Under the pieces are notes generated by a model that was not told where the DNA came from, did no database searches, and saw nothing but the letters and a program-made list of their open reading frames with translations. A program made the position numbers and the translations under genes. Of a stretch of 64,000 bases of DNA, positions 12,737 through 16,621 are shown piece after piece (within the stretch, counting starts at the first letter, position 1; the number at the start of each line of letters is the position of its first letter). This DNA comes from Candidatus Anstonellales archaeon. Lineage in GTDB: Archaea; Micrarchaeota; Micrarchaeia; Anstonellales; J096. The stretch covers positions 32,001-96,000 of the forward strand of contig JAWAFD010000002.1 in the NCBI GenBank assembly GCA_038890745.1, read 5' to 3'.

Positions 12737-13368
12737 AAAACAGATGCAAACTCCCTTAAAAATTCTTTTGGGTTTTCAGCTTTCACAAATGCAGACGCGA
12801 GAAGCACCCCTTTTGCACCTAATCTAAGCGCAACCTCCACATCCTCTTTACTGCTTACCCCAGCACCTGCGAGAACAGTCCCTTCTATTTCTTTAACCGC
12901 ATTCTCTATCAGCTCAGGCCTGTACTTGCTTATGCTCCTTCCTGAACCTATTAGCTCTGGTGGCTCTATTGCTATGAATTCAGGTTTAACTTTTGCAACC
13001 TCCTTTCCTTCCTCAACCTTTTCAACGCACACAACACTTTCCAATCCATACCTTTTCATACTCTCAACAGTTTCCTTCGCCTTTTCCACCCCCACCCTTT
13101 TCTCAGAGTGGTTTATCATGCTTCCCTTTACCCCTATTTCTTTAAGAGCAAAAGGAATGACTGCTCCGGTATTCGCACCCGGCTCGAAAGGGTCAGCGTG
13201 CTGAGCAAAAACATCAGAGTAGATTTTTCTTCCGTCTTTCAGAATTACTGCTGGAAGCGCAACCGCAATCCTTACCCCGCTCTCTTTGCTAACCTCTTTT
13301 GCTGCCTTCAGATACTTTGCAGGCTCTCTTATGCTCTGCTCATAATTCTTCAAGTTTAGCAAAATCAT
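12733..13368 (-). CDS. tpiA: Triosephosphate isomerase (archaeal type)
   Basis: NLKNY, NHSEKR, IEPPELIGSG, GAGV, GVLLASA. Confidence 0.95.
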   Translation of the reverse strand: MILLNLKNYEQSIREPAKYLKAAKEVSKESGVRIAVALPAVILKDGRKIYSDVFAQHADPFEPGANTGAVIPFALKEIGVKGSMINHSEKRVGVEKAKETVESMKRYGLESVVCVEKVEEGKEVAKVKPEFIAIEPPELIGSGRSISKYRPELIENAVKEIEGTVLAGAGVSSKEDVEVALRLGAKGVLLASAFVKAENPKEFLREFASVF

Positions 13369-13448
13369 AAGCTTTTAATTAGTTGCTTACATTTAAAATA
13401 TTTATCTATCGCCGAGGTCGCATAATCCGGTAGTGCGTCGGTCTCGAA

Positions 13449-13496
13449 TAGCCCTTTTTCGCCTTTGGCGAAAAAGCATTTAATCGGAAAAGAGAA
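13449..13496 (+). other. Canonical 37/38 tRNA intron, 48 nt (shared family B)
   Basis: Relaxed BHB (CTCG/AGAG, 3 of 4 pairs). 32/36-nt core identical to the tRNA-Glu intron. Confidence 0.88.
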
Positions 13497-13527
13497 AACC
13501 GATCCCGCAAGGGATTGCAGGTTCAAA

Positions 13528-13663
13528 ACCAAACCTAGGGGGAAGTTTCCCCCTAGGTTCCAGGTCTCCTCCTTAACCCCCTCATTTTTGCTCGTATAAG
13601 ATAGGAGGGTTGGAGTTAGGGGGCTCATCTAATAAGCTGAGCTCCCCCCCTGGCTGGTGGAAA
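13528..13663 (+). other. T-loop 59/60 tRNA intron, 136 nt (shared family A)
   Basis: BHB: central helix TTCA/TGGA, bulges AAA and AAT, intron helix CCA/TGG. Near-identical to 16472-16607. Confidence 0.9.
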
Positions 13664-13759
13664 TCCTGCCCTCGGCGTTTAATATCTTATCTAAAGCACA
13701 CGCAGGGCCAAAATGATAGGGGGTGAATGGCATGCATATCCCCCGCTATTCTTGAGATA

Positions 13760-14326
13760 TTAACTTAACAAACTGAATAAACCAAACAGGATGAATAGGA
13801 TAGAGGTGATTGCGTTTATCGCTTTGCTTGGAATTCTCTCTGCAAGTTTTGTGCCTATCGAAACATATATTGCGATCACTAATGCAAGCGCTGAAATCAA
13901 TCCTAGTAGAACAAGGATGGGAGACTGGTATCTAGCAGCCAATAGACCCGAGGTTATTTGTGTCTTGTCTCCAAATTCACTAATAAAAACTGTTAGAAAT
14001 AAAGTTGCCAATGGCAGTTTGGTTGAAATCTTCTTTTTATTTCTTTTGACTCTAATGAGATATGGCTGAGCAAAAGTCCATAATCCAAAAAGAATAAACA
14101 AAACAGCAATTAATATTTTGATTAGATCAAATGGTAGATAAAAACTAAAAAGGGCACCAACCAAAATACCAAGCACATCCATCAGCACCTGAGCAGATAA
14201 CCCAATAAGAAAAATCTTGACTGGTGATTTATATTTTAATGCTAAGCCCAGGATTACCAGTTGGGATTTATCAGCGATCTCTGAGATTAATACTAATACA
14301 AAGGTAGCGATTAATGGTTCAAGCAT
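13760..14326 (-). CDS. GDT1/TMEM165 (UPF0016) Mn2+/Ca2+ transporter
   Basis: Two E-x-G/A-D-K-S/T-Q motifs (EIADKSQ, EFGDKTQ). Start at MLEPL. Confidence 0.9.
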   Translation of the reverse strand: MLEPLIATFVLVLISEIADKSQLVILGLALKYKSPVKIFLIGLSAQVLMDVLGILVGALFSFYLPFDLIKILIAVLFILFGLWTFAQPYLIRVKRNKKKISTKLPLATLFLTVFISEFGDKTQITSGLLAARYQSPILVLLGLISALALVIAIYVSIGTKLAERIPSKAINAITSILFILFGLFSLLS

Positions 14327-14434
14327 ATTTTCTAGTTTTGAGTAAGGGTTTAAAAATACCACCGCTAACTTCAGCGAAAAGCCCTAACTCTTTTGCTTGA
14401 TATAATATCCATCATATGCTCTTTTAAGTGTGTA

Positions 14435-15070
14435 TTATAAAAAATTCTTCTTTTCCTCCTCTTTCTCCCTCTTCTCCCTCTCCAACATTTTCAATTTTCT
14501 TTTTAAGAATTTCCTCATCGCTTCCCTGTTGTTTCCTGCGTATTTCGTATAGAGTGCAAGCATCACGAATATTTTGTTCGGCAAAAAACTCAGCTCCTCA
14601 ATGGTTATCTCTCCCTTTGTTTCGAGCATCGCAAGTGCCTTTTTCACAAGCTCTATCCTGCTTGTTCTTTTTCCCTTTCTCTTCTCAAAATACTTAAGCA
14701 ATCTCTCCGGGTTATCTATTTTTTTGAAAAGAAGCCACTCATAAATTTTGAACCTTTTTGCACCTATTCTGTGCAGCCGGTCTATAAGCGCCTCTATCTC
14801 ATAATTCTGCTTTATGTGGTGGAAGTGCGAGTATATTATCTGCTCTTTTTCATGCTTTCTCAATTCTAAATAGTGCTCATAATTCATTGGGATGAGAAGC
14901 TGGTGCTTCTCCATCTCCAGCTCAACTTTACTGAGTTTTCTTATCTCCTCTTCTACGGGCTGGGTGATCTGTAAGGTAAGAGGTTGCTTTTCTTCCTCTA
15001 GTATTGTCACCAACGCATCTAACCTAGAGGGCTTTAGCCCTGATGCGTTGACGGGGGAGTGACTGAACAC
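14435..15070 (-). CDS. Hypothetical protein
   Basis: 211-aa charged ORF with a TATA-like TTTAAAAA ~25 nt upstream. No motif recognised. Confidence 0.6.
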   Translation of the reverse strand: MFSHSPVNASGLKPSRLDALVTILEEEKQPLTLQITQPVEEEIRKLSKVELEMEKHQLLIPMNYEHYLELRKHEKEQIIYSHFHHIKQNYEIEALIDRLHRIGAKRFKIYEWLLFKKIDNPERLLKYFEKRKGKRTSRIELVKKALAMLETKGEITIEELSFLPNKIFVMLALYTKYAGNNREAMRKFLKRKLKMLEREKREKEEEKKNFL

Positions 15071-15108
15071 ATTAAGTATTCAATGAGAATTTTTTTAAAC
15101 CCTTCTTT

Positions 15109-16359
15109 TTAGCCCTTCTCCCTTTTACCTCTCTCAACATACCTTATCTCGTTCTTTTCAATCGGCATTATCGTATCCATGGCCGATTTTTCTATCTCCT
15201 TTATTTTCTTACTGGAGTGAAACAATAGCCGCGTATAGTCATACTGCAGCGCACCTGGCACCACCCATGTTAAGAGGGATGAGAGGAAAACAACCCCGGC
15301 GGTAAAACTTAGGATATCAATCGTGAATGCCGGTGAAAATTCTTTTGCCATGATCATCGAAAACTCTCCAGTCGATATCATCAATAATCCTATGAGCGCA
15401 GATTTTGCCCAGTTATTATTTGTTGCTATCAGCATGAGCGTTGATGAAGAAAGTTTCGCGACGCAGCTTACGAGAGTAATTATTATAATTGCAAAAGCAA
15501 AAACGGGATTCAGGAAAAATAGGATGTTTGCATTCATACCTAATGAAAGGAAGAATATTGTTATAAAAAGCGAGGTGAGGATGTTCATTTTTTCTATTGT
15601 GTTTTTCAACCCCATTTGCGTTGAGGAAAGAATGCCTGCGATGAAAGCACCAATGCTCTCAGGGACTGAGAAAACATGCGCCACAAGAATTACAACAACT
15701 GCGAGCGCTATGTAGAATAGAAAGTATGTTTCATCATTTTCAGGAAGGTGCCTTGCAACCATTCTTGAAATGCCGACTATCAAAAAAAGCGGAATAGCAA
15801 ACATCAGCATGCTTACCAACGCAGAAATCCCAACACTCCCGGTTTTTATGAACGATGTGGTAAAGAGGATAAAAAGAACAGCAAACAGATCCTCCCATAT
15901 AAGTTCTACATACATCGTTGTCGTTTCCCTTCCATAAACTATTCTAAAATCCTGCAATGCCTTGGAAAATATTGCAGTACTTGTAATCGAGAAAATCACG
16001 CCAAAGACTAATGCTTCAAATGGTGATAATGCGAACAGAAGCATTCCAACAGCGCCAACAACAGCCGCTGTAAAACCCATTTTCATAATAGAGATACCAA
16101 GTGAGTTTATCCCAACCTTTTTTATCAAATCCACCCTCATTTCCAAACCTATAAGATACATTAAAAGAATTGCGCCTATGGAAGAAAATATATCTATACT
16201 CTGTTGGTTTATGATTGAGAAACCATTTGGCCCGGCAAGCGCTGCGATTATAAGAAGGAGAGGAACGGATGGAAGCCTGAATTTTGCGGAAATAAAACTC
16301 GCTATGAATGCAAGCGTGAGCGCGATGAGAAAGCCGAGCGGGGTTACGGAAACATCCAT
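15109..16359 (-). CDS. Cation:proton antiporter (CPA2/Kef-like)
   Basis: LLMYLIGLE, SITSTAI, LIWEDL, GAFIAG, FFLSLGM, STGEFS. Confidence 0.88.
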   Translation of the reverse strand: MDVSVTPLGFLIALTLAFIASFISAKFRLPSVPLLLIIAALAGPNGFSIINQQSIDIFSSIGAILLMYLIGLEMRVDLIKKVGINSLGISIMKMGFTAAVVGAVGMLLFALSPFEALVFGVIFSITSTAIFSKALQDFRIVYGRETTTMYVELIWEDLFAVLFILFTTSFIKTGSVGISALVSMLMFAIPLFLIVGISRMVARHLPENDETYFLFYIALAVVVILVAHVFSVPESIGAFIAGILSSTQMGLKNTIEKMNILTSLFITIFFLSLGMNANILFFLNPVFAFAIIIITLVSCVAKLSSSTLMLIATNNNWAKSALIGLLMISTGEFSMIMAKEFSPAFTIDILSFTAGVVFLSSLLTWVVPGALQYDYTRLLFHSSKKIKEIEKSAMDTIMPIEKNEIRYVERGKREKG

Positions 16360-16413
16360 AAACCTAATTCTCTAGTTCAGTTTAAAAATATTCTTTTACA
16401 TTAATTCTATCAC

Positions 16414-16621
16414 GCCCCAGTAGCTCAGTGGTAGAGCGACCGCCTCGTAAGCGGTAGGTCGTGGGTTCAACACCAAACCCAGGGGGAAGTTTCTCCCTAG
16501 GTTCCAGGTCTCCTCCTTAACCCCCTCATTTTTGCTCGTATAAGATAGGGGGGTTGGAGCTAGGGGGGTCTGAGAATAAGTTAAAGTACCCCCTGGTCTG
16601 GTGAGAATCCCATCTGGGGCT
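16414..16621 (+). tRNA. tRNA-Thr(CGT) with a 59/60 intron (16472-16607)
   Basis: Acceptor GCCCCAG/CTGGGGC; D-arm GCTC-AGTGGTA-GAGC; anticodon ACCGC-CT-CGT-AA-GCGGT; T-stem GTGGG/CCCAT with loop TTCAAC^T. Confidence 0.93.
16472..16607 (+). other. T-loop 59/60 tRNA intron, 136 nt (shared family A)
   Basis: BHB: TTCA/TGAG, bulges ACA and AAT, CCA/TGG. 92/96 identity with the tRNA-Ser intron over the first 96 nt. Confidence 0.9.

Follow-up and report, generated by a model that had tools for sequence, protein, structure and literature searches.

How two different transfer RNA (tRNA) genes of one archaeon come to carry nearly the same long intron is the question raised by a 64,000-nt stretch of DNA from Candidatus Anstonellales archaeon, a member of the Micrarchaeota (DPANN) (the window, G000:C2:32001-96000), in which tRNA-Ser(CGA) and tRNA-Thr(CGT) are each interrupted by a 136-nt insert at position 59/60, in the T-loop. 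The genome of which the window is part, G000, comprises 989 kb in five contigs and is 93.8% complete, and two sister species, G001 and G002, belong to the same genus (g1); the three genus genomes are 82-94% complete. A first-pass annotation of the window had proposed that the inserts form a recently mobile intron family, lacking open reading frames (ORFs) and yielding a structured circular RNA, either a selfish RNA element or a functional noncoding RNA (ncRNA). The explanation that we consider probable is that they are predicted bulge-helix-bulge (BHB) T-loop introns, the interiors of which have been refilled by DNA-level copying from hairpin repeats linked to tRNA genes.

In every feature that can be tested, both inserts conform to BHB introns of archaea, and their position is a known one. 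Each is framed by 3-nt bulges, a central helix with 4/4 pairs (one of them G-U) and a 3-bp outer helix, a strict arrangement found in 0.11% of random 136-nt pieces of the genome, and once the introns are removed in silico ARAGORN recognises normal tRNAs, one an 83-nt tRNA-Ser(CGA), the other a complete tRNA-Thr(CGT). Both genes are single-copy in G000, where the long ORFs use the codons TCG and ACG 837 and 1611 times. The complete BHB frames and the agreement at 92/96 positions over the first 96 nt, reported earlier, were reproduced; the inserts agree at 25/40 positions over the last 40 nt, and at 117/136 in total. The covariation described for the central helix dissolved into a shifted G-U wobble, because the exon side of that helix is TTCA in both genes, and a second intron of the serine gene (48 nt, at 37/38) had gone unmentioned; its central helix is of the relaxed kind (3/4 pairs, by eye), and it is identical at 36/41 positions to a short 59/60 intron of G002. 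The 12-bp hairpin at the 5' end (module H), the C-run/G-run stem and the 3' hairpin were all recovered. Folding of the sense strand gives z values of -3.4 for the Ser and -2.1 for the Thr intron, and the antisense strand also folds in the Ser intron (-4.2) and not in the Thr intron (-0.8). Neither insert contains an RUGAUGA C box on either strand, as had been stated, and the sequence fits no described Rfam family, group I/II introns and ribozymes included, tRNA alone exceeding the gathering cut-off in a scan of the window region and 10 loci. Positions 93-128 of the Thr intron recur exactly at five other places (four arrays behind tRNA genes and the tRNA-Trp intron), and the 3' part of the Ser intron is nearest to the Glu(CTC) intron; the window introns are evidently mosaics of modules.

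These introns belong to a large family and share modules with a still wider set of repeats. The near-identical copies in two tRNAs are both real, but there are far more than two: 26 tRNA genes of G000 carry a 59/60 intron, seven of class A (the window type, 131-407 nt, in seven different tRNAs), four of class B (169-253 nt, with the G-run modules reversed) and 15 of a short class (32-51 nt). The anticodons of these genes were partly assigned by eye, and false calls in coding DNA or in shifted registers were dropped, as was candidate C1:33970, which is not a tRNA. A whole-genome search for further copies, which the first-pass annotation had recommended, was made by iterated BLAST and uncovered 29 loci with related modules in tRNA and non-tRNA contexts, 22 of them within 250 bp of the T-arm of one of 45 listed tRNAs, zones that make up 2.3% of the genome; three of the other seven lie less than 100 bp from a contig end. 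Like repetitive extragenic palindromic (REP) sequences and REPINs, the modules are multi-copy short palindromes outside coding sequence. Immediately downstream of tRNA genes they line up in tandem, in some arrays together with repeated 3' ends of tRNAs, and repeat units are bordered by duplicates of the 3' ends of tRNA-Ala, tRNA-Thr(GGT) and a C/D-box-like RNA. Whole class A cassettes that lack BHB ends (79-84% identical) stand behind tRNA-Leu(GAG), Val(GAC) and Ala(TGC). In a rough pattern count, the ends of G modules are on the same strand as the tRNA in 16 cases and on the opposite strand in 35. Module X, a noncoding unit of 81 nt with 15 full copies, has 16-bp terminal inverted repeats, as miniature inverted-repeat transposable elements (MITEs) do; its insertions sit in G runs and, by eye, show no consistent target-site duplication.

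Models of copying at the DNA level and at the RNA level can be discriminated by the donor repeats, the three states at one orthologous site, the flips and the retained ends. The Thr(CGT) intron of G001 matches the window intron solely in the antisense direction (score 49 vs 18; 0/1000 shuffles reach 49). The Leu(GAG) and Ser(GCT) introns agree at 128/169 positions when compared directly and at 167/169 once module X is flipped, and a homologue of module X stands in opposite orientations in loci L093 and L097 (by eye). At the 3' bulge, TA is found in all four Ser(GGA) introns (two of class A, two short) and in 0/50 others, and Thr(CGT) retains TGA in all three intron classes, the class A consensus being TGGA; since such locus-specific ends are retained across class switches, the swap boundary lies inside the intron. 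The 5' 70 nt of class A introns are 93% identical within genomes and 84% between them (the 407-nt Trp intron excluded), and for 12/14 class A introns the nearest neighbour comes from the same genome, the exceptions being Gly(GCC) of G000 and the lone copy of G001. The word GGTT, which copies the exon, precedes the 3' helix in 29/33 short introns. The comparison set numbers 54 introns; the partial Glu(CTC) intron of G002 is outside it, and redundant loci were dropped (L095, the same as L094, and L096, L098 and L099, with intron sequences equal to those of G002).

Comparison with relatives shows how variable intron state is. Intron DNA has matches in 4/60 relatives (G001, G002 and, weakly, G026 and G028), and the short-intron pattern, which is blind to unrelated T-loop introns, in 3/19 genomes of the family, all of genus g1. 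For Thr(CGT), at its syntenic locus, G000 has a class A intron, G001 a class B intron of 97 nt and G002 a short one of 52 nt; Ser(CGA) holds class A in G000 and a short intron in G002, and is intron-free in the more divergent gene of G001. That intron-free gene (L031, G001:C9:3251-3334) occupies the syntenic site with a clearly different sequence, and is perhaps a gene replacement. Intron state differs, by eye, at 12 of the 25 tRNAs comparable between G000 and G002, and precise intron-free states exist in the sister species, for example at Gly-CCC and Asp in G002, so that the distribution among close relatives is patchy, as in intron families of the Thermoproteales type, and the notion of a recently mobile, ORF-less family holds. 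In G001, a single class A copy was seen among 12 introns. Module H has a wider range: besides its copies behind tRNA 3' ends in G000, it lies immediately behind tRNA genes in G157 and G028, members of two further families within the order, and in G026 it stands between genes; because it occurs behind tRNAs of other families it probably predates the introns. An order-wide H pattern matched at least 3/176 genomes, a lower bound, since the pattern is too strict and misses G000 and G001 themselves. In tRNA-Glu(TTC) of G001 (L051), the T-loop intron of Leu(TAA) (L063) apparently recurs in tandem within the anticodon intron (by eye), and the anticodon loop has the word TTCGA, as in a T-loop.

The enzymes that would splice such introns are present. 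G000 encodes RtcB and a 375-aa EndA of the broad-specificity ARMAN-2, or epsilon2, type (4fz2, E 2e-88), the enzyme pair of BHB intron systems; the catalytic and ASL residues of EndA are aligned and, by eye, it is identical at Y160, K161, Y236, H251 and K282, residues of the epsilon2 endonuclease named in PMC12397907. ARMAN-2 EndA cleaves a 59/60 intron in vitro (PMC3239211). A change of enzyme was rejected as the cause of the spread: an epsilon2-like EndA is found in 17/19 family genomes (the matches in genus g4 are shorter and partial) and short introns in just 3/19, so EndA permits the spread without explaining it. A second, 147-aa EndA-like protein is encoded in G000 beside the three-unit epsilon2 enzyme (L002:1339-1782; G000:C1:152186-152626); it has no catalytic motif by eye, and matches in 13/19 family genomes. 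The rtcB gene is uninterrupted in G000; in G001 (C35) and G002 (C38) its matches fall into two pieces about 1.3 kb apart, in G002 within one 936-aa frame, which suggests an rtcB intein in both sister species.

From what is observed in these genomes, namely the BHB frames, the modules, the cassettes outside introns, the three Thr classes, the flips, the locus-specific ends and the EndA/RtcB pair, we infer the following course for the origin, spread and tolerance of the introns. A short hairpin intron would have arisen once in the genus, probably when the palindromic strand of the T-arm folded back and was duplicated, an event that would build a BHB by itself. Gene conversion or replication template switching would have spread this intron among tRNA genes and deleted some copies, guided by the shared T-arm, intron-end microhomology and G/C runs, and the interior would have been exchanged for neighbouring hairpin repeats in either orientation. 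The cassettes are predicted to be excised by the epsilon2 splicing endonuclease; because splicing reads the BHB alone, self-folding interiors would be near neutral and tolerated, and the excised intron RNA is therefore most likely a by-product, a functional circular RNA being unlikely.

Several observations weigh against this course of events. Module H lies on the tRNA strand in 11/11 G000 copies, a regularity not expected of copying that is blind to orientation, and this remains a point in favour of some RNA-side role. For short introns, the nearest neighbour comes from the same genome in only 22/33 cases. Left swap boundaries offer at most about 7 bp of homology, by which ordinary homologous recombination is poorly served, and Thr retains its own C59. 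Loci L093 and L097 hold two class A introns with a common unusual AG bulge, and several short introns of G000 are 100% identical, ends included, so whole-intron copying must occur too. The precise intron-free states fit cDNA-mediated loss equally well, and the 16-bp terminal inverted repeats of module X are MITE-like. The shared GGTT may go back to a single ancestral event, which makes it weak support for the origin step.

Among other explanations, we regard as unlikely a non-autonomous REP- or MITE-like DNA element that depends for its movement on a dedicated transposase or recombinase acting in trans, an enzyme that would recognise the hairpins and target the T-arms of tRNAs and the 3' ends of genes for stable RNAs. 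The extreme preference for tRNA surroundings, the duplicated RNA 3' ends that flank the units, the inverted repeats and 15 full copies of module X, and the recurrence of module H behind tRNAs in families f9 and f11 would all suit such an enzyme. The three genus genomes, however, have no match for PF00589, PF01797, PF02371, PF01609 or PF00239 (within their stated completeness, and for these families only), and module X shows no consistent target-site duplication. Viral carriage was also rejected: 10 short pattern matches in viral contigs were judged to be chance, none of them beside a tRNA (by eye) and none matching G000 by BLAST at E 1e-20. A search with PF07282 gave one TnpB in G002 and one weak match in G000; the former is a solo protein of 384 aa (L205:268-1422) with no TnpA seen nearby, and as a parent element it was discarded, its locus having no similarity to the 54 introns. 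A further reading, that an undescribed selfish element family homes on stable-RNA 3' regions throughout the order, enters T-loops in one genus and is erased there by the host endonuclease, with module H as the signal for a mobilising enzyme outside the searched families and the trailer, intron and inverted states as phases of one cycle, is offered tentatively, as rather unlikely; if true, one cycle creates, swaps and removes tRNA introns. Transposition at the RNA level, through reverse splicing by EndA/RtcB, an outside reverse transcriptase and recombination into the gene, seems to us decidedly unlikely. It would account for the constant 59/60 position with intact BHB, the precise intron-free sister alleles and the invariably sense module H, and reverse transcriptases (PF00078) are present in 3/19 family genomes; but none was found in the three genus genomes, and the process cannot yield the antisense Thr(CGT) cassette, the flipped module X or locus-specific intron ends. 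Circle-junction 16-mers, searched in G000 and the fetched loci, were found for 0/54 introns, which adds to a model already strained by the strand flips.

We consider very improbable the idea, entertained in the first-pass annotation, that class A introns, once excised, serve as a functional ncRNA, structured and perhaps circular, hosted in several tRNAs. Strong folding, the constant sense orientation of module H and the conservation, across four genomes or populations, of the 5' 60 nt of class A introns speak for a function, and yet none of the 14 consensus pairs shows compensatory changes in an alignment of 11 copies (introns >150 nt excluded), a test with little power, the 5' part being nearly invariant, and no consensus structure extends past the 5' hairpin. 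The 3' half is swapped for unrelated modules between copies, the host tRNAs vary by species, G001 has its one class A copy, and there is neither a C box nor an Rfam family; nor does the alternative of a selfish RNA element agree well with modules that lie outside introns, without BHB ends and in both orientations. Least credible of all, and scarcely to be entertained, is an assembly artefact or a set of dead, never-spliced tRNA genes. Contigs do break inside the repeats, and several contig ends of G000 fall within hairpin arrays; against this, both genes are the sole copies for their anticodons, the BHB is kept in four genomes or populations, and independent assemblies agree on the intron class. 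The suspicion of mis-assembly was checked in contigs of sequencing run X2, possibly the source sample, which bridge three of the four intron junctions to unique flanks with at least 31 letters on each side and zero differences; the Ser(CGA) 3' junction has just 26 letters on the intron side, the contigs end within the repeat, and no intron is covered from end to end by any one of them. The best DNA matches among sequencing runs are hot-spring metagenomes; no RNA datasets are among the matching runs, which says nothing on expression. In one contig of run X4, 27 different letters replace the Ser 37/38 intron and variable arm (window 13448-13511), a variant that would represent another strain or another organism.

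The repeats are further illustrated by loci elsewhere in G000 (Table 1). At C4:96560-96830 (minus strand), a C/D-box-like small RNA gene has behind it a hairpin module and then 18 nt that duplicate the 3' end of this gene, a layout that matches that at tRNA genes. At C2:313720-313900, the duplicated 3' end behind tRNA-Ala(GGC) derives from tRNA-Ala(CGC), and therefore an array unit moved between paralogues. The 68-nt module of the tRNA-Trp anticodon intron occurs antisense, ahead of duplicated tRNA 3' halves, at three loci; at the C3 locus an assembly gap interrupts the anticodon intron of the tRNA, and for the C2 copy no 5' half can be seen. A long X-like hairpin at C2:135130-135163 lies between two genes, over the likely start of a gene that presumably resembles aTrm56. 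Descent of module H from the 3' end of 16S rRNA was rejected (score 12, equalled by 777/1000 shuffles), as was a link to CRISPR: when 60 spacers from the C3 array were compared with the 54 introns, local scores reached no more than 25, and there was no genuine match. Within the window, a solitary G-run/C-run hairpin some 38 nt downstream of tRNA-Ser(CGA) (13715-13751) resembles a decayed module G and is absent from G002, where the gene directly adjoins the next one; an ORF of 87 aa on the minus strand, which overlies the Ser gene (13365-13628), is regarded as probably incidental; and a 211-aa ORF (14435-15070, minus strand) has no Pfam match, and DNA matches of 77-83% identity in G001 and G002.

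Table 1. Positions of the two tRNA genes with their introns and modules (window numbering), and of the tRNA-Trp intron module elsewhere in G000
Feature	Position	Strand	Remarks
tRNA-Ser(CGA), two introns	13411..13677	+	exons 13411-13448, 13497-13527, 13664-13677; ARAGORN on in-silico spliced sequence
48-nt intron at 37/38 of Ser(CGA)	13449..13496	+	kin of the short T-loop intron class
Class A intron at 59/60 of Ser(CGA), 136 nt, strict BHB ends	13528..13663	+	
Module H, 5' hairpin, 12-bp stem	13532..13559	+	
Central C-run/G-run stem and 3' G-run/C-run hairpin (module G)	13569..13655	+	variant nearest Glu(CTC) intron
tRNA-Thr(CGT) gene	16414..16621	+	exons 16414-16471, 16608-16621
Class A intron at 59/60 of Thr(CGT), 136 nt	16472..16607	+	
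Trp-intron module	G000:C4:58533-58700	-	
Trp-intron module	G000:C2:227760-228060	-	
Trp-intron module	G000:C3:77090-77520	-	

One practical consequence concerns annotation: ARAGORN finds 12-14 of about 45 tRNA loci in G000. Among known systems, the repeats themselves are most reminiscent of bacterial REP, BIME and REPIN sequences and of the tRNA-linked tandem repeats of E. coli, which are built of short G/C palindromes joined into mosaic tandem arrays, commonly 3' of genes, with units that include a duplicated tRNA 3' end. The G000 modules share the short G/C palindromes, the mosaic arrays and the duplicated tRNA 3' ends; unlike in REP/REPIN systems, no RAYT/Y1 HUH transposase was found in the genus (PF01797 in 0/3 genomes, 82-94% complete), and the modules have come to lie within essential tRNA genes, in introns predicted to be spliceable.

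Closest in lineage is ARMAN-2 (Ca. Micrarchaeum acidiphilum), for which PMC3239211 and PMC12397907 describe non-canonical 59/60 BHB tRNA introns and an epsilon2 endonuclease. The two systems are alike in intron position, BHB geometry, lineage, enzyme type and in having more than half of their tRNA genes interrupted; they differ in that the tested 59/60 intron of ARMAN-2 is 13 nt long, against 131-407 nt in the long classes of G000, and in that the G000 introns are modular, share their modules with non-intron repeats and occur in both orientations. In Caldiarchaeum, tRNA disruption has been traced to an integrating recombinase element (PMC3293823); intron gain at the level of strains or species and duplicated tRNA fragments adjoining the gene are common to both cases, whereas the G000 cassette has no attached recombinase gene and no tyrosine or serine recombinase was found in the genus. 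In the literature covered, which did not extend to subscription journals and supplements, no account was found of T-loop introns that are long, derived from repeats and invertible, nor of long repeat-derived ones in Micrarchaeota. In Thermoproteales, transposed introns are near-identical in different tRNAs of one genome, as later summaries report (PMC4090602, PMC4033280, bioRxiv 10.64898/2026.10.13.758758). There, too, highly similar introns are spread across tRNA species and gain at the DNA level is supposed; the 2014 review calls the mechanism of archaeal tRNA intron transposition unknown (PMC4090602), and the 2026 preprint found no general arrival route for introns in Asgard archaea (bioRxiv 10.64898/2026.10.13.758758). 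The phylum and the enzyme type are different from those of Thermoproteales, and, measured against these summaries, an extra-intronic donor pool, inversion, interior swaps with retained ends and three states per site go beyond what is described for its families. The introns of G000 appear to behave like the transposed families of Thermoproteales, with strand flips, retained ends and donor repeats outside introns as additional features, and the genus offers a handle on how non-canonical tRNA introns spread in archaea.

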